Part shown: positions 12,673 through 58,324 of the stretch, piece after piece
How positions within the stretch are numbered: the first letter of the stretch is position 1
How the letters are laid out: each line of letters begins with the position of its first letter
Source of the DNA: Bacteroides sp.
GTDB lineage: Bacteria > Bacteroidota > Bacteroidia > Bacteroidales > SM23-62
Direction: 5' to 3'
Length of the DNA stretch: 64,000 nucleotides
NCBI GenBank assembly: GCA_011053095.1
Contig: DRHS01000002.1
Coordinates: 2,122-66,121 of the forward strand
Program-made: the position numbers and the translations under genes
Notes under the pieces: model-generated
Databases searched by the model: none
What the model was told of the DNA's origin: nothing
Seen by the model: the letters and a program-made list of their open reading frames with translations, nothing else

Positions 12673-12795
12673 AATGTTGAACAAGGAATTAGATTTAATA
12701 TCTGATTTGTAACAAATATAAATGTATATGACAAGTCAGATTAGGATAGATTTACCATGTATTATGTTAAATCGGGCGAATTGTATAATATGCCT

Positions 12796-16744: not shown

Positions 16745-18139
16745 TTAACCTATCAATTCTTTTTCTATGGTTTCGAGTGATTTTTGCTTTGTTTCGATTA
16801 GTCTTGATCGTATAAAGATGAATCCTGCTACACAAACTAATCCGAATATCCAGAAAGAACCCGATGCTCCCAGGGCTTTGTTCAGGAAAGGAAAAGTATA
16901 TACGAGTATAAAACTTGCTGCCCAAAGTGAGACAGTAGCAACTGCCAGTGCAGCGCCGCGGACCCGATTCGGGAATATTTCGGATAAAACCACCCAGGTA
17001 ATTGGTGCAATTGACATTGCATAACATGCAATTGCGAGCAATACAACAATCAGTACTGGTAATCCATGGAATTCAAAATAATAAAAGGCTCCCATGACGG
17101 CATAAATGCCTGCAAGTCCAGCAGATCCAATCATCATCAGTGCTTTACGGCCAATCTTATCAACTGTATATATGGCCACAAAGGTAAATACCAGGTTGAC
17201 GCTGCCGGTGACTACAATATTGAATAGGATGTCTGAGACTCCATAGCCAGCAGCTGAAAAAATTTCCTCGGCATAATTGAATATAATGTTGATTCCGCAC
17301 CATTGCTGGAAGGCTGCAAGCACAATCCCAATTATTAAAACCTTTGACATACCACCCGAGAACAATGCTTTGAAGCTGACACCACCGGTATTGGCTTTAA
17401 GTGAATTCTCGATTTCGACGATCTCCCGTTCGGCATATTCTTTGCCTCCCAAACGCTTCAATATGGAAAGTACACGATCATATTTATTTCGTGTGGCAAG
17501 CCAGCGTGGACTTTCGGGGACGAACCACATAAGGGTAAAGAAAAGTGAAGCTGGAACAAGTTCTGCCCAGAACATCCACCTCCAGCCGCTTTGTCCATTC
17601 CATGATTGAAGTATATCAGCAGCATTTGCAGTTTCTGGAACAGGCTCTGCAATCAACCAGTTAACAATCTGTGCTGCCAGTATCCCGATTACAATGGTTA
17701 GCTGGTTTATGGAGACAAAACCTCCCCTGAATCGTGCAGGAGTTACTTCAGCTATGTACATTGGTGATAGATTGGAGGCCAGGCCAATGCCTATACCACC
17801 TAATATCCTGAATATGACAAAGGAGTTAAAATGATTGGATGCACCAGTTCCCAGAGCAGACAGGATAAATAAAAATGCTGCCAGGATTAACAGCCTTTTT
17901 CTTCCATATCGGTCGCTGAGAAATCCGGATAATATGGCGCCAAGAAGGCAACCTGTAAGGGCACAACTCATGGCCCAACCCTGCAACCTGGGAAGGTCAG
18001 CAATCTCAAAGAATTTCTCATAAAAGGGTTTCGCTCCCCCGATCACCACCCAGTCATAGCCAAACAGTAACCCACCCATGGCTGAAACAAGAGAAATACC
18101 AAAAATATATCGGTAGTTAAATTTATTTTGTAGTTCCAT
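16745..18139 (-). CDS. MFS sugar porter (sugar:H+ symporter, XylE/GalP-like)
   Basis: 464 aa. Motifs: GGLLFGYD, GRKRLL, PESPRWL, and the C-terminal PETKQKSLETIE (PETKG-type) motif. Twelve hydrophobic segments. Its start overlaps the upstream GH30 gene by 17 nt. Confidence 0.9.
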   Translation of the reverse strand: MELQNKFNYRYIFGISLVSAMGGLLFGYDWVVIGGAKPFYEKFFEIADLPRLQGWAMSCALTGCLLGAILSGFLSDRYGRKRLLILAAFLFILSALGTGASNHFNSFVIFRILGGIGIGLASNLSPMYIAEVTPARFRGGFVSINQLTIVIGILAAQIVNWLIAEPVPETANAADILQSWNGQSGWRWMFWAELVPASLFFTLMWFVPESPRWLATRNKYDRVLSILKRLGGKEYAEREIVEIENSLKANTGGVSFKALFSGGMSKVLIIGIVLAAFQQWCGINIIFNYAEEIFSAAGYGVSDILFNIVVTGSVNLVFTFVAIYTVDKIGRKALMMIGSAGLAGIYAVMGAFYYFEFHGLPVLIVVLLAIACYAMSIAPITWVVLSEIFPNRVRGAALAVATVSLWAASFILVYTFPFLNKALGASGSFWIFGLVCVAGFIFIRSRLIETKQKSLETIEKELIG

Positions 18140-36443: not shown

Positions 36444-36718
36444 ATTGACTCTTAATTTAAAAATTGTTTAAAACTATGAATTGGCTTTTGAATTAACTAT
36501 GATAAAACAGGCATGAACTGTACCAGATTCATCAATCAGGGATGGCCGAACAAAATTCTATCTGCCAGGTACCAGCTAACATTTCAGCATACAACATATT
36601 GCACGGCTGAATGATTAGTCCAATAAAATGAAGAATAAATTTTATTTTGATCAATATTAAAGATCTAGATTTACCTCAAACAATTGAATCTGGTAGAAAA
36701 AAAATTAAAATCAACAAA

Positions 36719-39700: not shown

Positions 39701-40465
39701 GGTAAAAAACTACTGGCCACTGGACCCGAACTTGTAATCATGCTGGAAAACAATGAAATTCATACTTCAGGATTCCCCTGGCCCAGACCTGAGATGCCTC
39801 CTCTGAAAGAACTTAATCAGAAGTGTACTGGCTGGGAAGCCAGAGAGGTTGCTGCAAACAAATCGGAGAGTGGGGTAGAGATACTAATCAGGGGAAGCTA
39901 TCAGGAAGCTGAGGGACTGTATCGGTTGAATATCGGAGGCAATGGTAAAATGACTATCGATTATGAGTTTACAACTCATGAGGAAATGCATGTGCGACAG
40001 ATTGGGATCCTTTTCTATCTGCCAAATTCATATGATGAACTGAGCTGGAAAAGAAATGGAAGGTGGTCTAGCTATCCCGACAATCACATAGGCCGCAACG
40101 AGGGTACAGTAAAAGCCTTCAGAGATGCAAGTTTTCCTGAAGTTGATTCAAAAACCAAACCACCCTGGCCCTGGGAGCTTGACAGTAATGAAATGGGAAC
40201 CAATGAGTTTCGTGCAACGCGAACAAATATTCTGGAAGCTGCTCTCAGAGATAAAGATAATGCTGGGATAACAGTAAGGTCGGATGGCAGCCAACAAGTA
40301 AGAGCATTTATAGAAGGCGAGCATACTGGATTATTAGTTTCTGATTTCTATTCACCCGGCCTTGGTAGTTTTGCCGGGGCACAATTAAAATACCAGTTGT
40401 TCAGTGATAAAATACCGAAAGATTCTGTAATCAAGGGCAGGGTAAATTTAGAACTGATTCCATGA
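36719..40465 (+). CDS. GH2-like protein with ~300-aa N-terminal extension and atypical catalytic motifs
   Basis: GH2 sugar-binding domain (INIPQDWAGKSVKLRFDAVYSETDIWFNGIYVGHHMSTYTPFEVDVT). TIM-barrel segments are collinear with LacZ. HPSSMTWMIADES aligns with HPSVIIWSLGNES (Asp replaces Asn before the acid/base Glu; nt 38831-38836). TRPVIFDQYYH aligns with TRPLILCEYAH (Gln CAG at 39020-39022 at the nucleophile position). The ATG at 36719 gives a signal peptide; the track start at 36647 is a TTG. Confidence 0.75.
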   Translation: MSNWSMSLNTAIYILLLSTFPINSIAHASPADNELEGYLLCKKAVFTNRGDVHSNWIKPDWKIVKQGVYYKYTSFDIPEEKIPIDDDVRSIVSHSEEIRLHLYGLNPTSKFKLRLTYLSNSSGRVFSLKADDKILQKEITLPAGEKIEYILDLPKSVYKDEAVDLSIINESGPNAVLSSIELWGNSKESLVNLEIDIQGDFRSNIFGNISDGYMQKVEDAEIELKLEGTEKSIKLKSGKDGAFEATIPQDWRNDEDKWIFVSAKKGRLHGNNILASMEVFIPRLSPKPFSVKSVRNAEIDLKGIWQFNPNPPKNNYDININTANWASIEVPGEWGMQGFEVEVDSAAAYRRIINIPQDWAGKSVKLRFDAVYSETDIWFNGIYVGHHMSTYTPFEVDVTKAVMPGKPNVLAMEVCGESLADDNTANYMMIGRRAGGIIRRTSAFALPKVNIALLHVETQFDNEYNDAVLMVFIEIANESTEDVSGVSMDFDLTDTDINTKKLEFGPASFNLGDIKAGEYLYKTLEIPVKSPKHWNAENPNLYYLDGKLNIEGNELQVSRRRIGFRELEIRGNQVLINGSVTRLRGMSRQDSDPLWGRTVPEETLRREMELLNQMNVNNVYTCAFSPDELILDLADEMGMYMFEEPSTCWIGWWNDNMESRQYHFRQNKVSGNTDPKMYMEFLRPVVEMIQRGRSHPSSMTWMIADESAFIPAFERVRKCVKVLDPTRPVHFAWDVRDESIFDLGSHHYPSYVQLEEYSHSTRPVIFDQYYHIYRNRFVLSVDPGIRNEWVNAFVPFWEKTWDTPSIWGGQLFNYTDDIFLMPSGEVVGYGAWGVIDLWKREKPEAWHIKKGYSPAKIVDETSPIPVPKSGNPIEIQIENRYDFTNLNELNIEWSIEDETGKIAPDIPPQTNGVLSIFPKTKKLDGKLMSLDFYKDGALVDSYRLRLGEPKKVKIGKPAGAIELLESDAAFYINGNEFKMEIDRESGQLSVSSSEGKKLLATGPELVIMLENNEIHTSGFPWPRPEMPPLKELNQKCTGWEAREVAANKSESGVEILIRGSYQEAEGLYRLNIGGNGKMTIDYEFTTHEEMHVRQIGILFYLPNSYDELSWKRNGRWSSYPDNHIGRNEGTVKAFRDASFPEVDSKTKPPWPWELDSNEMGTNEFRATRTNILEAALRDKDNAGITVRSDGSQQVRAFIEGEHTGLLVSDFYSPGLGSFAGAQLKYQLFSDKIPKDSVIKGRVNLELIP

Positions 40466-40493: not shown

Positions 40494-41525
40494 ATGCCAA
40501 ACCCAGATCAGATAAAAATCCATAAACTGCAGAATAAATCCGGAATGACAGTTGGTCTTAGCAATTATGGAGCAAGGGTATTATCAATTATTGTAAAGAA
40601 CAAACATAATAGATATACTGACGTGGCGCTTGGGTACGATACGATTGAAGAATACCTGGTATCAAATGATCCGTATTTTGGAGCAACAGTTGGTAGGTTT
40701 GCAAACAGGATATCCTCTGGCAAATTTGTATTGAATGGAAAAGAATATCAGCTGTCAAAAAATGATCCATGCGGCCCAAATCATGTTCATGGAGGAGATA
40801 CCGGGTTTTCTCATGTTGTATGGAATGTAGTGTTGTCAGACACAAATTCGATAGAGTACCAGTATTTATCCAGGGATATGGAAGAAGGCTTTCCAGGGAA
40901 TTTAAATGTCAGGGTAAAATACAGCTTAAATGATGAAAACTCTTTGGTTATAGACTATAGGGCAACTACCGATGCATCAACGATATGCAACCTTACCAAT
41001 CATACATTTTTTAACCTGAACGGAACCCGAAGTGTTGATATATTGGATCATAGATTATTAATTAATGCCGCAGAATACACACCCGTAAATGATCAATTAT
41101 TACCCATTGGAAATAACATGTTGGTAAAAGATACACCTTTTGATTTCAATTCATTTTCAGCAATAGGTTCCAGATTAGATTCCATAGATGAACAGATTCG
41201 TATTGGCAGGGGATATTGCCATAATTATGTATTAAATAAGAATAATTCTGATTCACCTGCTGCTATAGCTTTTTCCCCGGAATCTGGTATAAGGATGGAG
41301 ATGTTTACTACTGAACCCGGATTACAGTTTTATTCCTGTGGATTTATGGATGGCAGTGATACAGGAAAGGGTAACATGGTTTACGGCAAAAACAGTGCAT
41401 TCTGTCTGGAGGCGCAACATTTCCCGGATTCACCAAACCAACCCGGTTATCCTTCGACCGAACTTATGCCTGGTGAAGTATATTCCCAGATAACGACATA
41501 TAATTTTTCGCTGGATAATTCATAA
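40494..41525 (+). CDS. galM: aldose 1-epimerase (galactose mutarotase)
   Basis: 343 aa, cytoplasmic. Motifs: GATVGRFANRI, NHVHGGDTGF, the C-terminal FCLEAQHFPDSPN motif and NLTNHTFFNL. Confidence 0.9.
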   Translation: MPNPDQIKIHKLQNKSGMTVGLSNYGARVLSIIVKNKHNRYTDVALGYDTIEEYLVSNDPYFGATVGRFANRISSGKFVLNGKEYQLSKNDPCGPNHVHGGDTGFSHVVWNVVLSDTNSIEYQYLSRDMEEGFPGNLNVRVKYSLNDENSLVIDYRATTDASTICNLTNHTFFNLNGTRSVDILDHRLLINAAEYTPVNDQLLPIGNNMLVKDTPFDFNSFSAIGSRLDSIDEQIRIGRGYCHNYVLNKNNSDSPAAIAFSPESGIRMEMFTTEPGLQFYSCGFMDGSDTGKGNMVYGKNSAFCLEAQHFPDSPNQPGYPSTELMPGEVYSQITTYNFSLDNS

Positions 41526-41555: not shown

Positions 41556-42938
41556 GTGAAATATAAAATCAACATTCTGTTTGTCTCCGCAATTACGATG
41601 ATATCCGCTATGGGTGGATTATTATTTGGGTACGACTGGGTAGTGATAGGAGGCGCAAAGCATTTCTATGAAATTTATTTCAATATAATGGACTCTCCCA
41701 ATTTGCAGGGCTGGGCAACAAGCAGTGCATTAATAGGGTGTATTGCCGGGGCAATCCTGGCAGGTACTTTATCGGATAAATACGGCAGAAAACCACCCCT
41801 GATCTTTTCAGCACTGCTTTTTACAATATCAGCAATCGGTACCGGCATGGCTGAAAACTTCACAATATTCATTGTGTTCCGGTTGGTCGGAGGAATTGGT
41901 ATTGGCATGGCAGCATTACTTTCTCCGATATACATAGCAGAAATATCGCCGGCCCGTTTCAGGGGGCTTTTTGTATCAATAAACCAATTGACTATAGTTA
42001 TTGGAATTCTCCTGGCACAAATCGTTAATTATTATATTGCTGAAATTGTTCCTGAAGGATTTACAAATGAGCAAATTCGGAATTCCTGGAACGGACAAAT
42101 GGGCTGGCGATGGATGTTCTGGGCTGAAACCATTCTATCGATATCCTTTCTTTTTCTTGCGTTTTTAATTCCCGAAAGTCCCCGCTGGCTGGTTAAAGCT
42201 GATAAAGGGGACAAAGCCCTGAAAGTACTTTCAAAAATCGGGGGGATGGAGTTTGCTGCAAAAATAAAAGGAGAGATCCAGGATAACCTAAAGAGCGAAA
42301 CGACTAAAATAAATCTCAGGGAATTTAAACATCCCAAAATCAAAAAAATATTAATGATAGGAGTGATTTTCGCCATCCTTCAGCAAATGTGCGGCATAAA
42401 CGTAATTTTCATTTATTCTGATGAAATTTTCACAAATGCCGGATACGGTGTTAACGATATGCTGTTTAATATTATAATGACAGGAAGTGTTAATCTGCTA
42501 TTTACCCTTATTGCTCTCGGGGTAATAGATTCCTGGGGACGACGCCTGTTGATGAAGCTGGGATATGGTGTCTTGGCATTTATCTATATTATTTTCGGAA
42601 TATTTTATAAAATGGGCCTGACCGGTCCCGTTATGCTGGTCTGTGTTTTACTGGCAATTGGTATTTACGCCTTGGCCCTCGCCCCAACAACATGGGTTGT
42701 GCTATCTGAAATTTTTCCAAACAAGGTAAGAGGAGTGGCTATGTCGATAGCTACTTTTGCACTCTGGTCATCCAGTTTTCTAACTACCTATAGTTTTCCG
42801 ATTATTAATAAAACTTTTAAATCATACGGAACGTTTTGGATTTATGCAGGTGTATGCGTTTTGGGATTTATATTCGTTTATAAATTCCTGCCTGAAACCA
42901 AAGGGAAGACCCTAGAAGAAATTGAGGATGCATTTTAG
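41556..42938 (+). CDS. MFS sugar porter, paralogue of 16745-18139
   Basis: GTG start. The N-terminus is collinear with the paralogue (GGLLFGYDWVVIGGAK identical in both). Also GRKPPL, PESPRWL and PETKGKTLEEIE. Confidence 0.9.
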   Translation: MKYKINILFVSAITMISAMGGLLFGYDWVVIGGAKHFYEIYFNIMDSPNLQGWATSSALIGCIAGAILAGTLSDKYGRKPPLIFSALLFTISAIGTGMAENFTIFIVFRLVGGIGIGMAALLSPIYIAEISPARFRGLFVSINQLTIVIGILLAQIVNYYIAEIVPEGFTNEQIRNSWNGQMGWRWMFWAETILSISFLFLAFLIPESPRWLVKADKGDKALKVLSKIGGMEFAAKIKGEIQDNLKSETTKINLREFKHPKIKKILMIGVIFAILQQMCGINVIFIYSDEIFTNAGYGVNDMLFNIIMTGSVNLLFTLIALGVIDSWGRRLLMKLGYGVLAFIYIIFGIFYKMGLTGPVMLVCVLLAIGIYALALAPTTWVVLSEIFPNKVRGVAMSIATFALWSSSFLTTYSFPIINKTFKSYGTFWIYAGVCVLGFIFVYKFLPETKGKTLEEIEDAF

Positions 42939-42981: not shown

Positions 42982-44154
42982 ATGAACTCAAGAGAAAGAC
43001 TGCTAAAAGCGATTAATGGAGAGAAGACAGACAGAGTACCCGTTACCCTGTTCATTCAGGATCATGGGCATTATATTCATCAGTTGCATCCTGAGATCGA
43101 TCCAATGGATTACCAGCAACTCACATTTAAAGTGATTGATTACCAGAGAAAACTTGGCTGTGATGTTTTTGCCCGGATGATCTTCGATCTGTATCACCCG
43201 ATTAATATTTGCCTTGGTGGTGTAAATGACGGAGAGGAAACAGATACCTGGAAGGTTGATACAGAAATCATTGAGGAAGGGAATAATTACATCAAAAAAT
43301 CGAAAATAACAACCCCCGAAGGTGTACTTAACCAGACACTTACCCGAGCCTCACAGAATAAGGGCACACATGTATATTGCTGTACCGAAAAGCCAATTAC
43401 CACCGAAGAGGAACTTGACATTGCTATAAAATATGAACCAAAAATGTCAAAAGAGTATGGTGAAATGGTGACTGGAAAAATACAAAGAATAAAGGATTAC
43501 ATAGGAGATGACGGAATTCTCGGAACCTGGGTTTCCGGGGGTCCTGTAAACAATGCTTCAATGATTTTTGACCATGTTAGTTTATATATGCTGTTCATGA
43601 CTGATCCTGATTTTTTCGACAAACTGATGAGATTTACCACAGAGCGTACTCTCAGTTATACCAAGGCTTTCATTGATGCCGGAGCTGATGTTATGCTGGT
43701 TGGTGGCAATGTGGCGGGAGGCTTTCTGGGTACTGAAGTTTATGAAGACTATATATTAAAATACGAGAAAGAATATATTGATTTCATTCAAAATACCGGA
43801 ACACCGGCAGTTTATCATAATTGTGGAAACATTATGAATCTTGTTGAATCATATAAGAAACTTGGGGCACAGGTAGTAGAACCATTTTCTCCTGTACCAC
43901 TTGGAGATGCAGACTTAAAGAAAGCAAAGGAGATTGTAGACGGAGAATATGTAATGATCGCTGGGATAGATCAGGTAAATGTTTTAAAAAATGGTACCGT
44001 CGAAGACGTTATCAAAGTGACAAAAGAAACTATTGATATTGGTAAAAAAGGCGGAAAATTTATCATGCAGAGTGTTGATTTTCTGGAATATAATACGCCT
44101 CCTGAAAATGTGGAGGCATTTGTAAAAACAGCTCTTGAAAATGCATATTACTAA
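42982..44154 (+). CDS. URO-D superfamily protein (MtaA/HemE-like fold), function unknown
   Basis: 390 aa with no signal peptide. N-terminus MNSRERLLKAINGEKTDRVPVT. HNCG motif at nt 43816-43827. No RQAGR motif and no Cys downstream of the HxCG motif. It starts 43 nt after the sugar porter. Confidence 0.75.
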   Translation: MNSRERLLKAINGEKTDRVPVTLFIQDHGHYIHQLHPEIDPMDYQQLTFKVIDYQRKLGCDVFARMIFDLYHPINICLGGVNDGEETDTWKVDTEIIEEGNNYIKKSKITTPEGVLNQTLTRASQNKGTHVYCCTEKPITTEEELDIAIKYEPKMSKEYGEMVTGKIQRIKDYIGDDGILGTWVSGGPVNNASMIFDHVSLYMLFMTDPDFFDKLMRFTTERTLSYTKAFIDAGADVMLVGGNVAGGFLGTEVYEDYILKYEKEYIDFIQNTGTPAVYHNCGNIMNLVESYKKLGAQVVEPFSPVPLGDADLKKAKEIVDGEYVMIAGIDQVNVLKNGTVEDVIKVTKETIDIGKKGGKFIMQSVDFLEYNTPPENVEAFVKTALENAYY

Positions 44155-48460: not shown

Positions 48461-50368
48461 ATGAATTTCCGGATATACATTTTGATCTTGCTGAGTTACG
48501 GAACCAAATTTACTCTCACATCTGCACAAACTCCAAACATTCTCTGGATCACCATCGAAGATACTTCTCCTCAGTTTATCGGATGTTATGGAAATTCAGA
48601 TGCCAGGACACCCACGATAGACTGGATAGCTGAGGAGGGCGTATGATTTGAATCTGCTTTTTCAAATGGGACTGTCTGCTCTCCCAGTCGTTCTTCCATC
48701 ATAACCGGATGCAGAACAAATGCTATGGGCACAGGTAACCACCGGAGTTCTTATCCAATTCCTGAATTTATCAGAGGATTTCCGGCATATCTTCGGGAGG
48801 CTGGGTATTATACTTCCAACAATAGTAAAACTGACTATAATACCTCGGAAGCCAGACGTATTAGCCTGGAATCATGGGACGAGAGTTCAGATACTGCCGG
48901 CTGGTGGAAAAGGAAACCGGGTCAACCCTTTTTTGCCGTTTTTAATTTCATCGATTCACATCAGTCCCGCGTCATGACCAATCCCTGGACCATCTACAAA
49001 AGCCAGGTTCTGGATCATCTGGACAAAGAAGAAATCATCGATCCCGAAGATATAACTATGCCGCCGTTTTATAAAGATTCCCCTCCTATGAGGAAGGAGC
49101 ATTCACGGATATATAACGGCCTCAGCCTGACGGATAAAAAAATTGACACTCTTTTGTCTGCGCTAAGATCGGACGGGTTAATTGATAGTACTATTATATT
49201 TTTTTATGCCGATCACGGTGAAGGCATGCCCAGGGGGAAAGCCAATTCAACCGGACTTGGTTACAGGGTGCCATGGGCTATATGGTTTCCTGACATGTAC
49301 AAACATTTATCTCCATGGGGAACCGGAACCCATACCAGGGAAACTGCAAGTTTTGTCGACCTGGCACCAACCATACTAAGCCTCGCAGGTATAGAAATTC
49401 CTGCATATATGTCCGGAAGAGCTATACTCGGGGAACAGAGGACGCATGCAGATGAATTTCTTTACCTCAGCAACGACCGCAGCGGTGAAGCAAGTGACAT
49501 TGAACGTTCATTAACTGACGGGAGGTATATGTACACCAGGGTATACAAGCCATTTTTGCCTGAACACCGATGGCAGAAATATTTCGATTATGCCGAAATA
49601 TGCAAAATCATGGTGAACGACTACAGTGCTGGCATACTTGACCCGGTCCAAAAACGCACATTTCAAAAAAGATCAGCCGAATATCTGTATGATCTCGAAA
49701 AGGATCCCTGGGAGATTCATAATCTGGCTGGGGAACAAGCCTACGAAAATCAGCTTGTAAAGTTCCGTAAAGCTCTAAATGACAATCTGAGCGAGATCAG
49801 GGATATTCATTTCCTTCCTGAATATCATCTGGACAGTATTAGCAGTTCTATTACCCCCTGGGAATATCGCCTAAAAGAGGACCGGTATTCATTCGAGGAT
49901 ATATTCGCAGCGGCCTCACTCTCCGGAATGGGCAGCAAAGTCCTTAAACAGCAGTTAGAACTTCTTAAACATCCCAATGGTGATGTCCGTTACTGGGCTG
50001 GCGTGGGACTAAGATCTCAGTCTATCGACCTTGGAAAATACCGCAATCAAATAATAGATGCCCTTGGGGATGAATACCCCCCTGCCAAAATTATAATCTC
50101 TGGAATATGCCATAATGATTTCCATGAATCCATGGCAAGGGATTACCTGGAGGAAACCTGCAGAAATGAAAACCCCCATCTTGCATTGATGGCTCTCCAG
50201 ACCATTATGTATCTTGATGAGGAAAATTCCAGGTCCTATCTGCCAATGATCCATGAACTTTATGCAGGCCTGGAAAACAAAAAAGGTTTTGAAGGAGTGA
50301 GGGATGCCTGCGAAATGCTGTTGTATGTTTTAGAGGGAAAGGAACTCTCCTATGAGTTGTTCTGGTAA
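48461..50368 (+). pseudogene. S1-family sulfatase interrupted by an in-frame TGA upstream of the active-site CxPxR
   Basis: ORFs 48461-48646 and 48725-50368 are in the same frame. Reading through the TGA at 48644-48646 gives ...TPTIDWIAEEGV*FESAFSNGTVCSPSRSSIITGCRTNAMGTGNHR..., a continuous sulfatase N-terminus. The signal peptide lies before the stop and the CSPSR motif (48677-48691) lies after it. Confidence 0.75.
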
Positions 50369-52516: not shown

Positions 52517-53626
52517 ATGGATCGCATAGAAAACTCCAAGGAAAGAATCCGAGCTGTCTATGAACACCGTAACCTTGAGATGCCATATATCGTGAACTAC
52601 ATGAATTACTGGCTTGAGGGTGAAACCCCATCCATGATACCTCAAGATTATTTCGATGATCCTGCTGTTATGACAGATTTTCAGCTGAAGAAGATTGATT
52701 TTCACATGGAAAATTTTCAGGATGATTTCATCCCCCTGCTGCATCCCTGGTTCGGAATAGGAGTGGTACCATCGGCAATGGGATGTGAAATTGAATTTGT
52801 AAAAAATGGGGATCCTGCAATACGTAAAGCCGCCATCAACCACCCCGAACAAATAATGGAGCTGAAAAGGCCGGATCCTTATAGTGATGGACTTATGCCC
52901 AGGGTACTCGGGGCAATCGACTATATGAAACAGCATACCGATATTCCTGTGAGTGTAACCGATACCCAGGGACCCTTGAATATTGCACTAAGTGTATGTG
53001 GACTTGAAAACATGTTCTCCTGGATGCTTATGTATCCGGAAAAGGCACATGAATTAATGGAACTAAGTACAGATATCCTAATTGATTGGGTAAAGGTTCA
53101 GAAAAAACATGCGGGACAGGAGATGGAATCAGGTGCCTGGCCCCATGCTATCCACCTTCCTGAGGGATATGGGGGTGTATGGCTTTCTGATGATGATTGC
53201 ACCCAGCTTCCGGCCGATCTTTACAGGGAATTTGTTGTCCCCTATAACAGCAAGGTGCTAAAAGCCTTCGGGGGTGGGACGATTCATTTCTGCGGAACGG
53301 CGGATCACCAGCTTGATAATTTCCTGGCGACAGATGGACTTACAGGGATCAATAATTTCTGCATGGGAGATTTCAACCAGGTAAAGCTGATGCAGGAGAA
53401 GTTTGAGGACAAGATTGCCATAATGGTTTGTGATTTCGCTCCCCTGGATATGGAAGGATATTTTCATGAAATCTTTTCTGTTATGCGCACTAAAGGCAAT
53501 ATTCTGGCAATTTTTATTGCCCCCGAATTTGCCCTGGGTGACGGACGCTATAAATTGGGTTCCCGCGAGGGTAATGAAACATCGAGGATTATCAATGAAA
53601 TTATTCGGAAGCAATTAAATAGATAA
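52517..53626 (+). CDS. URO-D superfamily protein (MtaA/HemE-like fold), function unknown
   Basis: Start taken at the ATG at 52517, 4 nt after the GH59 stop; the track ORF from 52385 overlaps GH59. N-terminus MDRIENSKERIRAVYEHRNLEMPYIV. HFCG motif at nt 53285-53296. No signal peptide and no RQAGR motif. Confidence 0.7.
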   Translation: MDRIENSKERIRAVYEHRNLEMPYIVNYMNYWLEGETPSMIPQDYFDDPAVMTDFQLKKIDFHMENFQDDFIPLLHPWFGIGVVPSAMGCEIEFVKNGDPAIRKAAINHPEQIMELKRPDPYSDGLMPRVLGAIDYMKQHTDIPVSVTDTQGPLNIALSVCGLENMFSWMLMYPEKAHELMELSTDILIDWVKVQKKHAGQEMESGAWPHAIHLPEGYGGVWLSDDDCTQLPADLYREFVVPYNSKVLKAFGGGTIHFCGTADHQLDNFLATDGLTGINNFCMGDFNQVKLMQEKFEDKIAIMVCDFAPLDMEGYFHEIFSVMRTKGNILAIFIAPEFALGDGRYKLGSREGNETSRIINEIIRKQLNR

Positions 53627-53634: not shown

Positions 53635-54300
53635 ATGACTGAATGGAAAAATGATGATGAGCTGATCAGGACCATTAAAGAGGAACTGTTCACCGCAGTG
53701 ATTGGAGATATCATGGACAAGATGAATTATCTGAACCAATTCCTTCCTCCTCAGATTCAGCCCCTCCGTGACAACATGATAGTGGTTGGCAGGGCAATGC
53801 CGGTACTTGAGGCAGATACCTTTGGGAATACCGTTGCGGGTACGGCCAATGACTTAATGAACAAACCTTTTGGATTAATGCTCGAGGCGCTTGATGACCT
53901 TAAGAAAAATGAAGTTTACATCTGTACGGGATCCTCTCCCAGTTATGCTTTATGGGGTGAGTTGATGAGCACAAGGGCCATAAAATTAGGTGCTGCAGGC
54001 GCAGTGGTTGATGGGTATGCCCGGGACACCCTGGGCATATTGGACCTGAACTTCCCCACATTTTGCTACGGTAGGTACGCACAGGACCAGGCTCCACGCG
54101 GTAAGGTGATTGACTTCCGGCTGCCAGTTCAAATAGGAAATGCTAAGGTCAATCCCGGAGATCTGGTAGTTGGAGATCTTGACGGTGTCTGCATCGTTCC
54201 CAGAGATATCGAGAAAGAGGTTATCGGGGAGTCCCTTGAGAAAGCCAGGGGAGAAAAAATGGTACAAAAAGCCATTGAAGAGGGAATGAGCGCAAGGTAA
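53635..54300 (+). CDS. RraA-family protein (class II pyruvate aldolase / oxaloacetate decarboxylase-like)
   Basis: 221 aa. LWGELMSTRAIKLGAAGAVVDGYARDT...FPTFCYG...PGDLVVGDLDGVCIVP matches the RraA/HMG-CHA aldolase family pattern (G.....A...G..G.V.DG..RD ... GD.DGV..VP). Confidence 0.8.
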   Translation: MTEWKNDDELIRTIKEELFTAVIGDIMDKMNYLNQFLPPQIQPLRDNMIVVGRAMPVLEADTFGNTVAGTANDLMNKPFGLMLEALDDLKKNEVYICTGSSPSYALWGELMSTRAIKLGAAGAVVDGYARDTLGILDLNFPTFCYGRYAQDQAPRGKVIDFRLPVQIGNAKVNPGDLVVGDLDGVCIVPRDIEKEVIGESLEKARGEKMVQKAIEEGMSAR

Positions 54301-54338
54301 GCTTTTGATAAATTTGGAATAATGTAACTCTGAAAATT

Positions 54339-55499
54339 ATGAAGATTACTGATGTAAAAGTCTGGCTTGTCGAGGGAATAAAGTACAACTGGACCATGCT
54401 GAAGATCTATACCGATGAAGGTTATACAGGAGTAGGAGAGGCTACCAACTGGCCTGGAAGCCCTATCGTTGAAGCTGCAGCAAAACACGCGGGTGAAAGG
54501 ATAATAGGCATGGATCCTATCCGAACGGATTATATCTGGACCAAGCTTTACCGGGACCTTAACTGGGTAGGACCATTTGGCGCTAGTTTATGTGCCATTA
54601 GTGGCATAGATATGGCCCTGCTTGACCTGAAGGCCAAGGTCCTCGGAGTCCCATGCTATGACTTATTGGGAGGTGCATACAGGAATGAGATCCTGCTCTA
54701 TGCAAATTACTGGTTTATAGATGGGGGACATAATGCCCGTGATTATGCTGATCAGGCACTAAAGGTGGTTGAGAAAGGTTTTACGGGACTCAAATTTGAT
54801 CCATTTGCACACACAAGTTATTTTTATGGGGACGATCTTTCCACAAATATGGCATTGGACCGTGACCAGCAGGATAAATCCTATGAAATTGTGAAAGCCG
54901 TCAGAGAGGCAGTTGGTCCAAATGTCGATATACTGATAGAAACACATGCCCTGCTGAATTTCAAGACTGCCATCATAATGGCCGAACGCTTAGCCGAACT
55001 TGATATTACATGGTTTGAAGAACCTGCCGGACCTGAGAACGAAAAGACATTGAAGGTTTTCAGGGAGCGCCTTGATCCCAGGGTCTCAATATGTGTGGGT
55101 GAGAGGCATTATACCCGCTATGGTATCAGGCCAATCCTGGAAAACGGTATTTGCGATATCATTATGCCCGATATTACCCGATGCGGTGGACCATCCGAGA
55201 TGAAGCGAATGGCGACAATGGCAGAAACCTATAGTGTACTGATTGCTCCGCACAATCCCAACGGTCCGTTGAGCACCCTGGCAAGTGGACATGTATGTGC
55301 CTCTATACCAAATTTATACCGACAGGAATTTATGCTGAAAGATGTGCTCTGGAGAGATGAAATCATCGATCACCCCCTTGAGTTCAAGAATGGGCACCTG
55401 GTACTTTCAGACCGATCGGGACTTGGGGTCGATCTTGTAGAAGAAGTGATGGAAGCGCATCCTGGTATTCGTAAAGCGAAACAGGGTTTTTATGTATAA
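54339..55499 (+). CDS. enolase-superfamily sugar-acid dehydratase (mandelate racemase/muconate lactonizing family; galactonate/mannonate dehydratase-like)
   Basis: MKITDVKVWLVEG...LKIYTDEGYTGVGEAT is a DgoD/ManD-like N-terminal capping domain. Barrel motifs: GIDMALLDLKAKVLGVPCYDLLGG, VDILIETH, ITWFEEP, ICVGER, DIIMPDITRCGG. Confidence 0.85.
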   Translation: MKITDVKVWLVEGIKYNWTMLKIYTDEGYTGVGEATNWPGSPIVEAAAKHAGERIIGMDPIRTDYIWTKLYRDLNWVGPFGASLCAISGIDMALLDLKAKVLGVPCYDLLGGAYRNEILLYANYWFIDGGHNARDYADQALKVVEKGFTGLKFDPFAHTSYFYGDDLSTNMALDRDQQDKSYEIVKAVREAVGPNVDILIETHALLNFKTAIIMAERLAELDITWFEEPAGPENEKTLKVFRERLDPRVSICVGERHYTRYGIRPILENGICDIIMPDITRCGGPSEMKRMATMAETYSVLIAPHNPNGPLSTLASGHVCASIPNLYRQEFMLKDVLWRDEIIDHPLEFKNGHLVLSDRSGLGVDLVEEVMEAHPGIRKAKQGFYV

Positions 55500-55517
55500 C
55501 CCATATTAATATTAAAT

Positions 55518-56309
55518 ATGATACCCATTGATCTCAAAGACAAAGTGGCCATTGTGACAGGTGTTTCCAGTGGGATCGGTGCCGGTGTTGCGGCAACCCT
55601 TGCAGAAGCTGGCTGCCACATATCCTGTTGCGCAAAGAATAATCCGGATTCCCCGGGAGTCTTGAATTTCATACATACAGTGGAATCTCTTGATCGCAAA
55701 TGCATGTATCAGAAAGCAGATGTCACATCCACAGAGGAAATTCAATCCTTAGTAAAAAATACCGTTGATAAATATGGCAGGATTGACATCCTTATATCCA
55801 ATGCGGGAATGAATGTTTTTAAAGGTGCTGAGGAAGCTTCAGAAGGAGACTGGGATTTTAATATGAACCTCAATCTGAAGTCTCACTGGACAATTGCCAA
55901 ACTATGTAAACCATATCTATCAGAAAGTCCGAATGGTGTAATTATTATTAACTCCTCCAATCATGCCTACAGTACAATACCCGGTTGTTTCCCCTATAAT
56001 GTATCCAAGGCTGGAATTTCTGGCCTGGTACAGTCCATTGCCATTGAATGGGGACCTGATATCCGAACCATTGGGATTGCTCCCGGATTTATCGTTGTCG
56101 AAAGCACAAAAGCATGGTTCGATTCCTTCCCCGATCCCGGGGCTGAGCTGGAAAGAACCATACAGAGACATCCTGCGGGCAAGATTGGGACTCCCCAAGA
56201 CATAGGGGCGTTCTGCGCTTTCCTGGCCAGTGATTATGCGGGATTTATTACAGGTGTTACCTACCTTATCGACGGGGGCAGATCTGCTCTAATGCAGGAT
56301 GATCAATAA
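55518..56309 (+). CDS. short-chain dehydrogenase/reductase (SDR)
   Basis: TGVSSGIGAG (TGxxxGxG), NAG and YNVSKAG (YxxxK). 263 aa. The stop TAA (56307-56309) overlaps the next ATG (56309-56311). Confidence 0.9.
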   Translation: MIPIDLKDKVAIVTGVSSGIGAGVAATLAEAGCHISCCAKNNPDSPGVLNFIHTVESLDRKCMYQKADVTSTEEIQSLVKNTVDKYGRIDILISNAGMNVFKGAEEASEGDWDFNMNLNLKSHWTIAKLCKPYLSESPNGVIIINSSNHAYSTIPGCFPYNVSKAGISGLVQSIAIEWGPDIRTIGIAPGFIVVESTKAWFDSFPDPGAELERTIQRHPAGKIGTPQDIGAFCAFLASDYAGFITGVTYLIDGGRSALMQDDQ

Positions 56310-57205
56310 TGCAGGCTGAACTCATATATGATGCACGTGCAACGCTCGGCGAGGGTCCATTCTGGGACCATCAAAATGACCTGCTGATCTGGGTCGACAT
56401 CGAAGAAGGCAGTGTGCATTTTTACAATCCTGCCAATGGGCAGGATAAATACCGGGAGCTTGGAACGAGAATTGGAATGGCAGTACCAAATACCGAAGGA
56501 CATATAATCGCAGCCCTACAGGATGGATTCGCCTGGATTATTGAAGACAGTAATCCGATTTATATTGCGGATCCGGAAAATGATCTTAAAAATAACAGGT
56601 TCAATGACGGGAAATGTGATCCTCAGGGACGGCTCTGGGCAGGGACGATGGATTTGGAAGCTGAGGAAAATTGCGGAAGTCTTTATCGTATGAATGAAGA
56701 CCTCACGGTCTCTCAAATGATATCCGGTGTCAGCATTTCAAACGGACTGGCATGGTCGCATGATTCTAAAACCATGTATTACATAGATACCCTTAGCTAC
56801 AATGTAATGTCATATGAATTTAGTCCCTCAGAAGGTATCATTGCCAACCCGGAGACAGTTATCGTAATCCCGAAAGACCATGGCGCCCCCGACGGCATGA
56901 CCATTGACCGGGATGGAAAGCTCTGGATCGCTCACTGGGGTGGGGGAAATGTCAGCCGCTGGGATCCCGATACCGGTCAATTGATGAAGGTAATAATCGT
57001 TCCGGTGCCTCAACCCACATCCTGTGTTTTTGGAGGCAGTCTGCTGGATACTCTTTATATTACATCTGCCAGAACAGGATTATCCGTACAGGAACTTAAT
57101 GAATACCCGGAAAGCGGGGGATTATTTGCTGTAAAACCGGGGGTGAGCGGCTATCACTCTTCCTGCTTTAAAGGAAAACCCGGGCGGATTGATGATAAGA
57201 TGTGA
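56309..57205 (+). CDS. SMP-30/gluconolactonase/LRE-family lactonase
   Basis: LGEGPFWDHQNDLLIWVDI, RFNDGKCDPQGRLWAGTM, SNGLAWSHDSKTMYYIDT, PDGMTIDRDGKLWIAHWGGG and TSCVFGG...LYITSA form a regucalcin-type six-blade pattern. Confidence 0.85.
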   Translation: MQAELIYDARATLGEGPFWDHQNDLLIWVDIEEGSVHFYNPANGQDKYRELGTRIGMAVPNTEGHIIAALQDGFAWIIEDSNPIYIADPENDLKNNRFNDGKCDPQGRLWAGTMDLEAEENCGSLYRMNEDLTVSQMISGVSISNGLAWSHDSKTMYYIDTLSYNVMSYEFSPSEGIIANPETVIVIPKDHGAPDGMTIDRDGKLWIAHWGGGNVSRWDPDTGQLMKVIIVPVPQPTSCVFGGSLLDTLYITSARTGLSVQELNEYPESGGLFAVKPGVSGYHSSCFKGKPGRIDDKM

Positions 57206-57250: not shown

Positions 57251-58324
57251 ATGAGTACAAATAGAGAAAATCTTATAAGATCCCTGAAACGTGAAGGCTT
57301 TGATCATGTGCCAGTAGATTTCTGGCTATGTGAATCGCAGATTAAGGCCTTTAAGGATCGGATAGGACATGAAGATTACCAGTACTGGTTTAATCTGAGC
57401 CACAGAATGTTTGAAATGGAGGTTAGGAGAAATTTTAAAGATGGGCATGAACTGTTTCATAGAGAAAAGCTTCCTTCAGACACAAAGTTTGATGAATATG
57501 GAATAGGTCATTCCAAAGGTTCAGAATTGGCATTTCATATGACAAGGATGCACCATCCGCTGAAAGGAGCCGGTTTGAGCGAGATTCTCGATTATCCTTA
57601 CCCCTCAGTAGACTCCCAAAAGGAGAAGAAAATAGAAGAAATTGTAAATGGTTTGCATAGCCAGGGACTAGCTTCCTTTGCTTTCATGCAGATGACTGTA
57701 TGGGAAGCCTCATGGTATCTTAGATCCATGGAGGAATTGATGATGGACATGATGATGATGGATGAAAAAGCAACCGTTCTTCTTGATAAAATCACCGAGT
57801 TTGCCTGCGCCAAAGCCGGTGCATATGCGGAAGCCGGAGTGGACATCTTGAGCCTTGGAGATGATATCGGTACTCAGAATTCTATAATGATTGATGTGGG
57901 ACTATGGGAGCAATGGCTGAAACCCAGGATCTCAAAGGTTATCGAGACTGCCCGGGAAATCAATCCGGATATATTAATATTTTATCATTCCTGCGGATAT
58001 ATTGTTCCCTTCATCGACCAGCTTATCGAAGTTGGCGTGGATATATTGAACCCTATCCAGCCCGAATGTATGAGTTTTGATGAAATCGCCAATAAGTATG
58101 GCAATAGGGTGTCATTTTGGGGAACAATCGGTACGCAGGAACTCTTGCCCTTTGGTACAGCTAATGAAGTCAGGAAAGTGAGTACATCAAGGCTTGAGAA
58201 ATGTGGAGAAAAGGGAGGTCTTTGCATTGGTCCGACACACCTTGTCGAACCCGAAGTTCCCTGGGAAAACCTTATGGCAATCAAGGAAGCCGTCAGTGAA
58301 TTTGAAAGCAAAATTAAAGGGTGA
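57251..58324 (+). CDS. URO-D superfamily protein (MtaA/HemE-like fold), function unknown
   Basis: 357 aa with no signal peptide. N-terminus MSTNRENLIRSLKREGFDHVPVD. HSCG motif at nt 57986-57997. Its C-terminal part (VDILNPIQPE..FWGTIGTQELLPFGT..EV) closely parallels 8531-9802 (WDILNPVQIS..FWGGGIDTQKTLPFGTPSEV). Confidence 0.75.
   Translation: MSTNRENLIRSLKREGFDHVPVDFWLCESQIKAFKDRIGHEDYQYWFNLSHRMFEMEVRRNFKDGHELFHREKLPSDTKFDEYGIGHSKGSELAFHMTRMHHPLKGAGLSEILDYPYPSVDSQKEKKIEEIVNGLHSQGLASFAFMQMTVWEASWYLRSMEELMMDMMMMDEKATVLLDKITEFACAKAGAYAEAGVDILSLGDDIGTQNSIMIDVGLWEQWLKPRISKVIETAREINPDILIFYHSCGYIVPFIDQLIEVGVDILNPIQPECMSFDEIANKYGNRVSFWGTIGTQELLPFGTANEVRKVSTSRLEKCGEKGGLCIGPTHLVEPEVPWENLMAIKEAVSEFESKIKG

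Follow-up and report, generated by a model that had tools for sequence, protein, structure and literature searches.

A conserved four-gene cassette with an RraA-like protein, a sugar-acid dehydratase, an SDR and a lactonase, and its probable role in oxidation of a galactose-like sugar

Main finding

A block of four genes in a 64,000-nt stretch of Bacteroides sp. DNA (contig DRHS01000002.1, positions 2,122 to 66,121; the whole stretch is called the window here) is one copy of a widespread, conserved cassette, which probably oxidizes a galactose-like sugar. The window gene order recurs in loci of at least six phyla, and the block is therefore more than a chance arrangement. We found no published description of the cassette in the literature. 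Its RraA-like protein, an uncharacterised enzyme, may carry out metal-dependent aldol cleavage of a galacto-type 2-keto-3-deoxy-aldonate, a reading that we prefer but hold at somewhat less than even odds.

Organization of the gene block

The four ORFs lie on the + strand and are as tightly packed as the preliminary description had stated, the successive spacings being 38 nt, 18 nt and a 1-nt overlap. They encode an RraA-like protein (53635-54300, 221 aa; the fold in its long form, extended by helices at the N-terminus), an enolase-superfamily acid-sugar dehydratase (54339-55499, 386 aa; DgoD/ManD-like, of an uncharacterised subgroup), a classical SDR (55518-56309, 263 aa; adh_short and adh_short_C2) and an SMP-30/regucalcin-type lactonase (56309-57205, 298 aa; PF08450, E = 3.1e-82). 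Family profiles bear out all four identities, and 0/4 of the proteins carry an N-terminal signal peptide. The reported bracketing by URO-D-like genes was also found, with PF01208 matches on either side of the block, both on the + strand: the upstream gene (52517-53626 within an ORF from 52385; 369 aa by gene calls; E = 5.6e-24) ends 8 nt before the RraA-like gene, and the downstream gene (57251-58324; 357 aa; E = 2.1e-19) starts 45 nt past the lactonase gene. The top NCBIfam matches of these flanking genes are MtaA/CmuA-type (methylcobalamin:CoM) methyltransferases, not HemE, and an H-x-C-G motif is common to all four URO-D/MtaA-like paralogues in the window. URO-D-like genes occur near the cassette in only 8 of the 160 related loci described below; proteins 26-47% identical to the one encoded at 57251-58324 are found at most four genes from it in L005, L006, L013, L036, L112 and L143. 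A role of these genes in the pathway is speculative.

Upstream supply genes of the same locus, assigned by Pfam and also on the + strand, encode a GH2 beta-galactosidase-like enzyme (36647-40465), a galactose mutarotase GalM (40494-41525; 305 bits vs. a cut-off of 240 for PRK11055) and a XylE-like MFS transporter of the sugar porter family (41556-42938). The + strand array that includes the block begins with a sulfatase gene (48461-50368; Pfam), in which an in-frame TGA (48644-48646) lies upstream of the CSPSR motif, and continues with a GH59 lipoprotein gene (starting at 50515 or 50560 and ending at 52512; Pfam and gene calls).

Conservation of the cassette

We compared 160 related loci, namely 80 genome loci centred on an RraA orthologue and 80 metagenome loci chosen by a dehydratase orthologue 73-77% identical to that of the window; 8 of the latter 80 are cut upstream by a contig end and are not evaluable for the RraA-like gene. 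The genomic-context comparison that had been proposed for RraA-like genes and dehydratases revealed a constant partnership: an RraA-like gene lies within four genes of the dehydratase orthologue in 72/72 evaluable metagenome loci, and a sugar-acid dehydratase candidate lies within 10 kb of the RraA orthologue in 65/80 genome loci. This partnership supports reading the four genes as one functional unit. Three types of dehydratase, unrelated or distant from one another, serve as partners. In two Firmicutes loci, one of them L039, the genes run SDR, IlvD-like dehydratase, SMP-30, RraA (about 70% identical), and in nine loci the RraA orthologue is paired with a distant enolase-superfamily member. 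Since the dehydratase type is swapped and the RraA partner is kept, the constant element is a dehydratase followed by an RraA-like protein. The matches span Bacteroidota, Verrucomicrobiota, Planctomycetota, Chloroflexota, Acidobacteriota and Firmicutes, and the cassette is also present in Parabacteroides common in the human gut. It is usually accompanied by LacZ-like GH2 enzymes, a sodium:solute transporter and an AraC-type regulator; L039 has an additional ABC sugar transporter upstream and GalM downstream. SDR orthologues (47-60% identical) are found in 72/80 dehydratase loci, and the lactonase in 21/80 and 18/80 of the related loci.

The window copy of the RraA-like gene carries a premature stop. 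Its 3' end reads AGG TAA GCT TTT GAT AAA TTT GGA ATA ATG TAA (+ strand), with the premature TAA at 54298-54300 and the ancestral stop at 54325-54327. Homologues of the RraA-like protein run to 230 aa and terminate in EAFxKYGIM, five positions of this tail being at least 90% conserved, and the in-frame remnant AFDKFGIM past the TAA matches the conserved C-terminal tail of 37/37 aligned homologues. The nonsense codon thus removes nine conserved C-terminal residues; it also follows from the tail remnant that the 38-nt gap is secondary and that 11 nt originally lay between the RraA-like and dehydratase genes. Four other metagenome assemblies encode the same 221-aa protein. Given this truncation and the in-frame stop in the sulfatase of the same array, the pathway may be impaired in the organism of the window.

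These lesions bear on the idea that the RraA-like protein has no enzymatic part in the pathway, being instead an RNA-turnover regulator, as E. coli RraA is, or an oxaloacetate decarboxylase of general function, or that this arm of the locus is decaying in the organism. The RraA family is named after an RNase E inhibitor, and a dehydratase is missing from the vicinity of about eight RraA orthologues whose flanks are complete. We nevertheless give this explanation a very slight chance: the protein scores 28 bits against the true RraA model (cut-off of 136), its orthologues are 65-80% identical across phyla in strict synteny with catabolic genes, and the window frame is intact but for the last nine codons, with every invariant position kept. 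E. coli RraA, as Mazurkewich et al. are said to have found in 2014, lacks the catalytic residues that the RraA-like protein keeps.

Family, fold and residues of the RraA-like protein

The RraA-like protein belongs to PF03737 (E = 5.6e-32) and is under every NCBIfam cut-off (ligK/PcmE, 65 bits vs. 304.5). The best Foldseek matches of its AlphaFold2 model (pLDDT 83) are 5ir2, 3k4i and 3noj (TM 0.69-0.78). The catalytic Asp/Glu-X20-Arg-Asp motif of HMG/CHA aldolase is kept, as is the Glu that comes from the second subunit: E109, R130 and D131 align with D102, R123 and D124 of 3NOJ, and E207 is the equivalent of Glu-199' by extrapolation only, the 3NOJ alignment stopping one residue short. Each of the four is at least 97% conserved among 124 orthologues and invariant in a 38-sequence alignment. 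The roles of the catalytic residues of HMG/CHA aldolase have been described (PMC5065237), and by this resemblance the RraA-like protein looks catalytic.

Dehydratase, SDR and lactonase

The dehydratase has both MR_MLE_N and MR_MLE_C domains (E = 3.9e-58) and the motifs E201-x-H203, E227, E255, D278 and H305; 199 of its 386 positions are at least 97% invariant among 113 orthologues. Its top NCBIfam models, gluconate/galactonate dehydratase and DgoD, are both under cut-off (229 bits vs. 311 for the DgoD model NF010624). The nearest structures are the structural-genomics targets 2o56, 2poz, 2qq6 and 2ox4, of unassigned function (E = 1e-57 to 1e-52), and DauB (5olc) is matched at 3e-40. The lactonase matches regucalcin (3.8e-55) and 7plb (3.2e-49), deposited as 'Smp-30/Cgr1 family protein', which we take to be the Caulobacter xylonolactonase. 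The SDR has the TGxxxGIG, S146 and Y160-x3-K164 motifs, and its second-best NCBIfam model is glucose 1-dehydrogenase (180 bits vs. a cut-off of 215); a structure search gave no close characterised structure. In lactonase-encoding operons, including those of the window, L026, L040, L054 and L074, the SDR is the single oxidoreductase. A lactonase in the operon implies a 1-dehydrogenase, and the SDR must then be that enzyme; we thus infer that it is an aldose 1-dehydrogenase.

This assignment weighs against a scheme in which the SDR would oxidize the keto-deoxy acid at C4, as L-KDF/L-KDR 4-dehydrogenases do, and the RraA-like protein would hydrolyze the 2,4-diketo-3-deoxy acid so formed, an acylpyruvate, into pyruvate plus a carboxylic acid in place of an FAH-family hydrolase. 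Acylpyruvate hydrolysis, oxaloacetate decarboxylation and aldol cleavage all proceed via a metal-bound pyruvate enolate. The NCBIfam model NF009399, for a 501-aa protein named FAH family, matches the RraA-like protein by way of its RraA domain, and a second context of the RraA orthologue, in Ulvibacterium and relatives, has two SDRs beside it. The scheme is very unlikely in view of the one-oxidoreductase operons and of the SDR itself, which is nearer to glucose 1-dehydrogenase and aldose dehydrogenase models than to KduD-like ones.

Proposed pathway and the fate of the 2-oxo acid

In the route that we propose, the GH2 and GH59 beta-galactosidase-like enzymes of the PUL would free a neutral galacto-configured aldose, either D-galactose itself or a related sugar (for example L-arabinose, D-fucose or an O-methyl-galactose), which would be imported and then mutarotated by GalM. 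The SDR would oxidize the sugar at C1 to an aldonolactone, the SMP-30 lactonase would open the lactone ring, and the enolase-superfamily enzyme would dehydrate the aldonate to a 2-keto-3-deoxy-aldonate. The RraA-like protein would hold this 2-oxo acid through a divalent metal (E109, D131 and E207) and Arg130, and a retro-aldol cut at C3-C4 would yield pyruvate and an aldehyde. The protein families, their catalytic motifs and the conserved linkage of the genes are observed; every substrate in this route, like the aldol cleavage itself, is predicted. A galacto-type sugar is suggested because the GH2 enzymes of the cassette resemble beta-galactosidases of LacZ type, GalM is present in the window and in L039, and the best dehydratase profile is DgoD-like.

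The window has no sugar-acid kinase or KDPG-type aldolase, as first noted: Pfam scanning of all ORFs of at least 180 aa detected no PfkB, DgoK or KDPG-type aldolase, and HMMs trained on PfkB and Eda sequences from related loci gave no match at E <= 10 in the six-frame translation. Neither a kinase nor Eda lies within 8-10 kb in 153/160 related loci, and aldehyde dehydrogenases, FAH hydrolases, DHDPS and HpcH aldolases are all missing from the recurring neighbours that we clustered and annotated in the 160 loci. The lack of known aldolase families in this neighbourhood, and of kinase and Eda genes in most loci, counts in favour of an aldolase role for the RraA-like protein. The absence of the kinase and Eda is weak evidence against a phosphorylative route (De Ley-Doudoroff or semi-phosphorylative Entner-Doudoroff style), since KdgK and Eda are often encoded elsewhere in polysaccharide degraders. 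In such a route the keto-deoxy acid would be phosphorylated by a PfkB-type KDG/KDGal kinase and then cut by an Eda-type aldolase, the genes of both usually lying elsewhere, and the RraA-like protein would be a helper, either a C4 epimerase converting 2-keto-3-deoxy-galactonate to KDG by retro-aldol cleavage and re-addition, or an enzyme supplying the open-chain or keto form of the substrate. L-ribulose-5-phosphate 4-epimerase, an aldolase fold working as an epimerase, is a precedent. A KDG/KDGal-kinase-like PfkB adjoins the cassette in 7/160 loci of at least three lineages, and in 5 of the 7 an Eda-type aldolase gene lies next to the kinase gene: L039 (Firmicutes), L070 (Flavobacterium) and L095, L096 and L101, where both genes are divergent from the AraC regulator; L110 has the kinase alone, at a contig edge. 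Bifunctional KDG/KDGal kinase models give the best matches to these kinases, which share 37-53% identity across phyla but score under the NCBIfam cut-offs. Moreover, the L039 pair is preceded by the gene of a GntR regulator and may form a module of its own, and the RraA family has no known epimerase, tautomerase or ring-opening activity. We consider the phosphorylative route unlikely, though not negligible.

Another possibility is that the RraA-like protein acts as a second dehydratase, or combines dehydration with decarboxylation as FlDet does, giving a 2,5-dioxo acid or alpha-ketoglutarate semialdehyde in either a Weimberg-type route for pentoses or an oxidative route for uronates. FlDet of Flavobacterium sp. 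UMI-01, a Mg2+-activated RraA-family protein that turns 2-keto-3-deoxy-glucarate into alpha-ketoglutarate semialdehyde and is inactive on KDG or KDPG, is the only experimental precedent for the family in sugar-acid catabolism (PMC8563752). Elimination of the C4 hydroxyl is possible by the same metal and arginine enolate chemistry, and beta-glucuronidases also belong to GH2. The cassette GH2 enzymes, however, are closer to LacZ than to beta-glucuronidases, the transporters are of neutral-sugar types with GalM present, and the dehydratase fits DgoD-type profiles (1e-68) far better than GudD (2e-5). FlDet adjoins a semialdehyde dehydrogenase, of a class missing from the clustered and annotated recurring neighbours of the cassette; its published N-terminus (MTTLSASTKEKLKTVSTPT) is unlike the RraA-like protein, and it is described as closer to S. 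coelicolor RraAS2. These differences make the possibility a rather improbable one.

Aldol cleavage by the RraA-like protein is our best reading, against which we count the HMG/CHA aldolase score far under cut-off and the missing Asn71 and His75, the chemistry of FlDet, the kinase/Eda-bearing loci, an aldehyde product with no handling gene, the truncated window copy, and the fact that we found no report in the literature of an RraA-fold enzyme cleaving a 2-keto-3-deoxy-aldonate. The preliminary interpretation of a complete non-phosphorylative pathway is thus supported in part: the functional unit and the aldolase-type residues stand, while "complete" is overstated because no nearby gene handles the aldehyde.

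Comparison with known systems

HMG/CHA aldolase (LigK/PcmE; Pseudomonas putida F1, 3NOJ) has the same alpha-beta-beta-alpha fold as the RraA-like protein (Foldseek E = 1e-14, TM 0.69) and the same acidic residue-X20-Arg-Asp motif with a C-terminal Glu at the Glu-199' position, and its divalent metal dependence and pyruvate-enolate intermediate are also expected for the RraA-like protein. The two are only about 25% identical, Glu replaces Asp-102, and Asn71 and His75 are not conserved; HMG/CHA aldolase acts in protocatechuate or gallate degradation, whereas the RraA-like protein occurs with sugar oxidation genes in polysaccharide loci and its predicted substrate lacks the 4-carboxylate. FlDet shares with the RraA-like protein the family, a polysaccharide-degrading Bacteroidota host, a 2-keto-3-deoxy sugar acid substrate and Mg2+ activation. 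It differs in its reaction (dehydration plus decarboxylation of an aldarate-type substrate), in its neighbours (alpha-ketoglutarate semialdehyde dehydrogenase and alginate lyase, not dehydratase, SDR and lactonase) and in its N-terminal sequence, which is unrelated as far as the published N-terminus was compared.

Non-phosphorylative routes (Dahms, fungal/archaeal De Ley-Doudoroff and L-rhamnose LRA) lead from aldose to lactone, aldonate, 2-keto-3-deoxy-aldonate, and pyruvate plus aldehyde. The cassette shares their reaction order and their dehydrogenase, lactonase and dehydratase classes, but their aldolases are DHDPS/NAL class I or HpcH/HpaI class II enzymes; it has neither, and an RraA-fold protein stands in their position. 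The dehydratase resembles DgoD and DauB (3,6-anhydro-D-galactonate cycloisomerase, 5OLC) in superfamily and in the pattern of metal ligands and His / His-Asp motifs. DgoD is its best NCBIfam profile, yet the dehydratase scores under cut-off and has no dgoK or dgoA alongside. Dahms and Anderson (about 1969-1972) reportedly described a metal-dependent 2-keto-3-deoxy-L-arabonate / 2-keto-3-deoxy-D-fuconate aldolase in pseudomonad MSU-1, whose gene, to our knowledge, was never tied to a protein family. The RraA-like protein, if it is an aldolase, would carry out the same type of reaction as the MSU-1 enzyme, on galacto-configured substrates not phosphorylatable at C6.

Gene Organization of the Cassette

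The cassette consists of four plus-strand genes encoding an RraA-like protein (53635-54300; PF03737, E = 5.6e-32), an enolase-superfamily dehydratase (54339-55499; both MR_MLE domains, 3.9e-58), a classical SDR (55518-56309) and an SMP-30/gluconolactonase-type lactonase (56309-57205; PF08450, 3.1e-82). Domain searches thus returned the four families named in the preliminary description, and the ORF coordinates reproduce the tight packing it reported, with spacings of 38 nt and 18 nt followed by a 1-nt overlap. The enzymes had also been described as cytoplasmic, and a signal peptide is absent from the N-terminus of all four. The bracketing by URO-D-like genes was also confirmed: both flanking plus-strand genes (52517-53626 and 57251-58324) match URO-D, but their closest NCBIfam models are MtaA/CmuA-type methyltransferases and not uroporphyrinogen decarboxylase.

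The cassette forms the middle of a ten-gene plus-strand array in the order sulfatase, GH59, URO-D-like, RraA-like, dehydratase, SDR, lactonase, URO-D-like, GDSL esterase and DUF5107/TPR protein. The array is located within a Bacteroidota-type polysaccharide utilization locus that contains SusC and SusD, four GH30 and two GH2 enzymes, two sulfatases, a hybrid two-component regulator, GalM and two sugar-porter transporters. The window had been said to lack a sugar-acid kinase and a KDPG-type aldolase; in agreement with this, PfkB, DgoK and KDPG-type aldolase were not found by Pfam among all ORFs of at least 180 aa, and PfkB and Eda HMMs from the related loci had no matches in the six-frame translation of the window. 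A scan for sigma-70 promoters and terminators gave counts in the window equal to those in shuffled sequence.

Distribution of the RraA-Like/Dehydratase Pair

The RraA-like protein has thousands of close relatives at 65-80% identity. An RraA-centered scan of genomes yielded 80 loci from Bacteroidota, Verrucomicrobiota, Planctomycetota, Chloroflexota, Acidobacteriota and Firmicutes. By neighbor clustering, a dehydratase orthologue (70-86% identical) is encoded at 54 of these 80 loci and an SDR likewise at 54, followed by GH2 (36), a divergent AraC-type regulator (33-36), the lactonase (21) and a sodium:solute transporter (17-25). In the reciprocal direction, a dehydratase-centered scan of metagenomes yielded 80 loci, and an RraA-like gene lies no more than four genes away in 72 of them. 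In the remaining eight the contig ends short of the expected position, and an RraA-like partner is therefore present at every dehydratase locus that can be judged. Many of the dehydratase-centered loci are from human-gut metagenomes and match Parabacteroides merdae (L087-L164, for example L149 at 1402-14566). The P. merdae unit reads GH2, SusC, SusD, AraC, RraA-like, dehydratase, SDR, sodium:solute transporter and GH2, followed by unrelated peptidases; its RraA-like protein (WP_368339110) and dehydratase (WP_122203170) belong to 90%-identity clusters with 1,840 and 3,279 sequences, respectively.

Some loci depart from this arrangement. In L001 and L003 a second RraA-family paralogue (32-37% identical) is found in tandem, directly upstream of the 75-77% orthologue, and a dehydratase was not found nearby. 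L002 and L003 encode a close homologue (75-76%) of the MFS sugar transporter of the window (16745-18139), and the neighbors in L001 are sulfatases.

Exchange of the Dehydratase

In two Firmicutes loci (L039, 6621-11969, and L068, 6668-10690) the enolase-superfamily dehydratase is replaced, directly upstream of the lactonase, by an IlvD-like dehydratase that passes the curated ilvD cut-off (673 vs 618 bits). The order is SDR, IlvD-like dehydratase, SMP-30 lactonase and RraA orthologue (~70% identical). In L039 this cassette is preceded by an ABC sugar transporter and followed by GalM; the locus further encodes a GntR regulator, an Eda-type aldolase and a pair of PfkB kinases. Such neighbors bear on a kinase-dependent route, in which the RraA-like protein could serve as a C4 epimerase via aldol chemistry or as some other helper. 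A PfkB gene adjoins the cassette in seven loci from at least three lineages, with an Eda-type aldolase adjacent in five; the kinase matches bifunctional KDG/KDGal kinases best, and KdgK and Eda are encoded elsewhere in many polysaccharide degraders. Set against these loci are the 153 out of 160 in which the kinase and Eda genes were not found.

The RraA orthologue (68-73% identical) is paired with a distant enolase-superfamily member in nine further loci from Ulvibacterium, Splendidivirga and others (L017, L018, L019, L021, L037, L045, L053, L057, and L063). The order in this second context is RraA, SDR, SDR, the distant enolase-superfamily protein (377 aa), a RidA-domain fusion (292 aa), a creatininase-family hydrolase (253 aa) and a sodium:solute transporter. 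Given the RidA domain, the substrate here might be an amino-sugar acid. L018 is the sole second-context locus annotated past the transporter, where a sulfatase follows.

Altogether, a dehydratase of any of the three types lies within 10 kb of the RraA-like gene in 65 of the 80 RraA-centered loci, and several of the others are truncated. The most compelling reason to think that the RraA-like protein would act on the product of the dehydratase is that the pairing survives a change of dehydratase type.

Fold, Active Site and Family Standing of the RraA-Like Protein

The RraA-like protein has the fold in its long form, with an N-terminal extension. Its AlphaFold2 model (pLDDT 83) has 5ir2, 3k4i, 3noj, 2c5q, and 5x15 as top structural matches, among which the HMG/CHA aldolase (LigK/PcmE) structure 3NOJ is similar in fold with E = 1e-14 and TM 0.69. 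D102, R123, and D124 of that aldolase pair with E109, R130, and D131 (Asp/Glu-X20-Arg-Asp, with Glu for Asp), which reach 97% conservation or more among 124 orthologues and show no variation in a 38-sequence alignment. In the HMG/CHA aldolase these residues, together with Glu-199' from the neighboring subunit, hold the metal and stabilize the pyruvate enolate (PMC5065237). The phmmer alignment stops one residue before Glu-199', and E207, likewise conserved among the orthologues and invariant in the 38-sequence alignment, is its extrapolated equivalent. In contrast, Asn71 and His75, which have been implicated in phosphate activation and substrate binding in the HMG/CHA aldolase, are not kept and correspond to a gap and Leu83. 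The protein scores 65.1 bits against the equivalog TIGR02798 (ligK_PcmE, cut-off 304.5) and 28.1 bits against NF006875 (cut-off 136), the model of RraA proper, the RNase E inhibitor of ~160 aa. The short RraA structures also match more weakly (TM 0.51-0.58), and the RraA-like protein is longer at 221 aa (230 in homologues). Since the scores fall far under both cut-offs while the catalytic residues are kept, the protein is predicted to have HMG/CHA-type catalytic machinery and to stand outside the family of that aldolase.

Among solved structures, PDB 5IR2 is the closest (222 aa, RraA fold; Foldseek E = 1e-17, phmmer E = 5e-24). The name under which it was deposited, [quoted passage not shown] is an odd label for an RraA fold, and no paper on this structure was found in the literature search.

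Nonsense Codons in the Array

All 37 aligned homologues are ~230 aa in length and end in EAFxKYGIM. The window gene reads SAR-TAA followed by in-frame AFDKFGIM-TAA (54298-54327); the tail codons and the ancestral stop are still readable past the TAA, which points to a GAA-to-TAA change with loss of nine conserved C-terminal residues (221 vs 230 aa). Four other metagenome assemblies encode the identical 221-aa protein, and the truncation is thus not an assembly error. The other invariant positions are all intact. At the head of the array, the sulfatase gene (48461-50368) contains an in-frame TGA at 48644-48646 (EGV*FES), probably derived from CGA, downstream of the signal peptide and ahead of the CSPSR active-site motif, and gene callers split it into ORFs of 61 aa and 547 aa. 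It is either a pseudogene or the source of an N-terminally truncated product. That a single array carries two nonsense codons suggests a relaxation of selection. Reassignment of the genetic code was considered for the in-frame stops and rejected because TAA is also the normal end of neighboring genes.

The Dehydratase, SDR and Lactonase

The dehydratase contains E201-x-H203, E227, E255, D278, and H305, all kept among orthologues, and 199 out of 386 positions are at least 97% invariant in 113 orthologues. By the pattern of DgoD-type acid-sugar dehydratases, these motifs presumably provide three acidic metal ligands and the His and His-Asp acid-base residues. The top profiles are gluconate/galactonate dehydratase and DgoD, each under its cut-off (229 bits vs 311 for the D-galactonate dehydratase model NF010624). 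DgoD would be expected beside dgoK and dgoA, whereas neither the kinase nor the aldolase was found in the window. The closest solved structures are structural-genomics targets lacking an assigned function. A role as 3,6-anhydro-galactonate cycloisomerase is unlikely in view of the lactonase in the cassette and the occurrence in gut and soil bacteria.

In the SDR, the cofactor motif and the Ser-Tyr-Lys triad are both intact. Its nearest named models, glucose 1-dehydrogenase and aldose dehydrogenase, both score under cut-off, and no close characterized relative was found by NCBIfam profile and structure comparisons. Lactonase-encoding operons have one oxidoreductase only, from which we infer that the SDR is the 1-dehydrogenase. 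It is 263 aa long with the 1-nt lactonase overlap in the window, L081 and L084, and gene calls give it 257 aa and a gap of 16 nt in L082 (11884-12657) and L083 (6627-7400), metagenome copies of the same organism; the two forms differ at the C-terminus, and the tail DGGRSALMQD is conserved among orthologues. The lactonase resembles regucalcin and the SMP-30/Cgr1-family entry 7plb, which we take to be the Caulobacter xylonolactonase.

Candidate Substrates

The GH2 enzymes associated with the cassette are closest to LacZ-type beta-galactosidases, and assignment as beta-glucuronidases was rejected on the same top matches. GalM is above cut-off in the window and in L039, and the transporters are sugar porters or sodium:solute symporters. 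Together with GH59 in the window and the DgoD-like dehydratase, this sequence evidence points to a neutral galacto-configured aldose as the substrate. The candidates are D-galactose, L-arabinose, D-fucose or modified galactoses, which we could not separate on these grounds.

Predicted Reaction of the RraA-Like Protein

In the cassette the RraA-like gene holds the position that a keto-deoxy-aldonate aldolase of a known family has in an oxidative non-phosphorylative aldose pathway. No DHDPS/NAL or HpcH/HpaI aldolase was found in window ORFs of at least 180 aa or among annotated neighbors in the related loci. Nor did the recurring annotated neighbors of the 160 loci include any other aldolase family, aldehyde dehydrogenase or FAH hydrolase (recurring clusters were annotated; neighbors present in fewer than four loci were annotated in part only). 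Downstream of the cassette in nine loci and in P. merdae, the genes encode peptidases, glycoside hydrolases, a phosphodiesterase or unknowns, with no aldehyde dehydrogenase, FAH hydrolase, kinase or reductase. The simplest interpretation is that the RraA-like protein would catalyze retro-aldol cleavage of a 2-keto-3-deoxy-aldonate.

The same neighborhoods bear on two other activities. FlDet, an RraA-family enzyme able to dehydrate and decarboxylate a keto-deoxy sugar acid (PMC8563752), is a precedent for the fold acting on such a compound, and the RraA-like protein might do likewise. This is argued against by the consistent absence of a semialdehyde dehydrogenase from the recurring annotated neighbors of the 160 loci, whereas FlDet has an alpha-ketoglutarate semialdehyde dehydrogenase adjacent. 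The published N-terminal 19 residues of FlDet (LC519890), to which the comparison is limited, are also unlike the RraA-like protein. Action as an acylpyruvate hydrolase would need a second dehydrogenase, and the compact operons are without one.

The URO-D-Family Paralogues

Besides the two genes flanking the cassette, the window encodes URO-D-family paralogues at 8531-9802 (minus strand) and 42982-44154 (plus strand), and the best matches of all four are MtaA/CmuA methyltransferases. The four are divergent (21-27% identical), without signal peptide, and have in common an invariant H-x-C-G motif. One adjoins FolD (7550-8431, minus strand) and another adjoins GalM and a sugar transporter. A corrinoid-binding protein was not found in the window, and an Rfam scan across its full length had no hits, in particular none to a cobalamin riboswitch close to the URO-D-like genes. 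Genes of this kind lie in the vicinity of the cassette at 8 of the 160 related loci (among them L005, L006, L013, L112, and L143). These paralogues may be sugar O-demethylases.

A joint reading, which we consider improbable as a whole, is that the RraA fold provides a new metal-dependent family of 2-keto-3-deoxy-aldonate aldolases and that the four MtaA-like paralogues are cytoplasmic sugar O-demethylases. The cassette could then be a De Ley-Doudoroff-like route that works without a kinase on galacto-configured sugars not phosphorylatable at C6; these could be D-fucose, L-arabinose or, in marine loci like the window, O-methylated galactose from sulfated algal galactans. The demethylases would pass methyl groups towards tetrahydrofolate, an oxygen-independent alternative to P450 sugar demethylases.

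Significance and Relation to Known Pathways

At least six phyla share the RraA-like/dehydratase pair, with 65-80% identity, and a full-text literature search found no paper that describes the cassette, gives the pair a function or links the RraA-like family to keto-deoxy-aldonate cleavage. The relevant literature on RraA-like function was limited to the papers on FlDet (PMC8563752) and HMG/CHA aldolase (PMC5065237); a Zobellia transcriptome paper was set aside because it concerned an unrelated dgoD. If the RraA-like protein is an aldolase, the cleavage of keto-deoxy sugar acids would gain a further enzyme fold, "RNase E regulator" annotations would be corrected in the thousands, and a kinase-free route would come to light that metabolic reconstructions now miss in polysaccharide degraders from gut, soil and marine habitats. 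With four small soluble enzymes and candidate substrates that can be made enzymatically, the cassette is a good and cheap target for enzymology. The logic of such a pathway has precedents in the Dahms, non-phosphorylative De Ley-Doudoroff and L-rhamnose routes. The novelty, if the aldolase reading holds, would lie in the protein fold that performs the final step and in how widely it is distributed.
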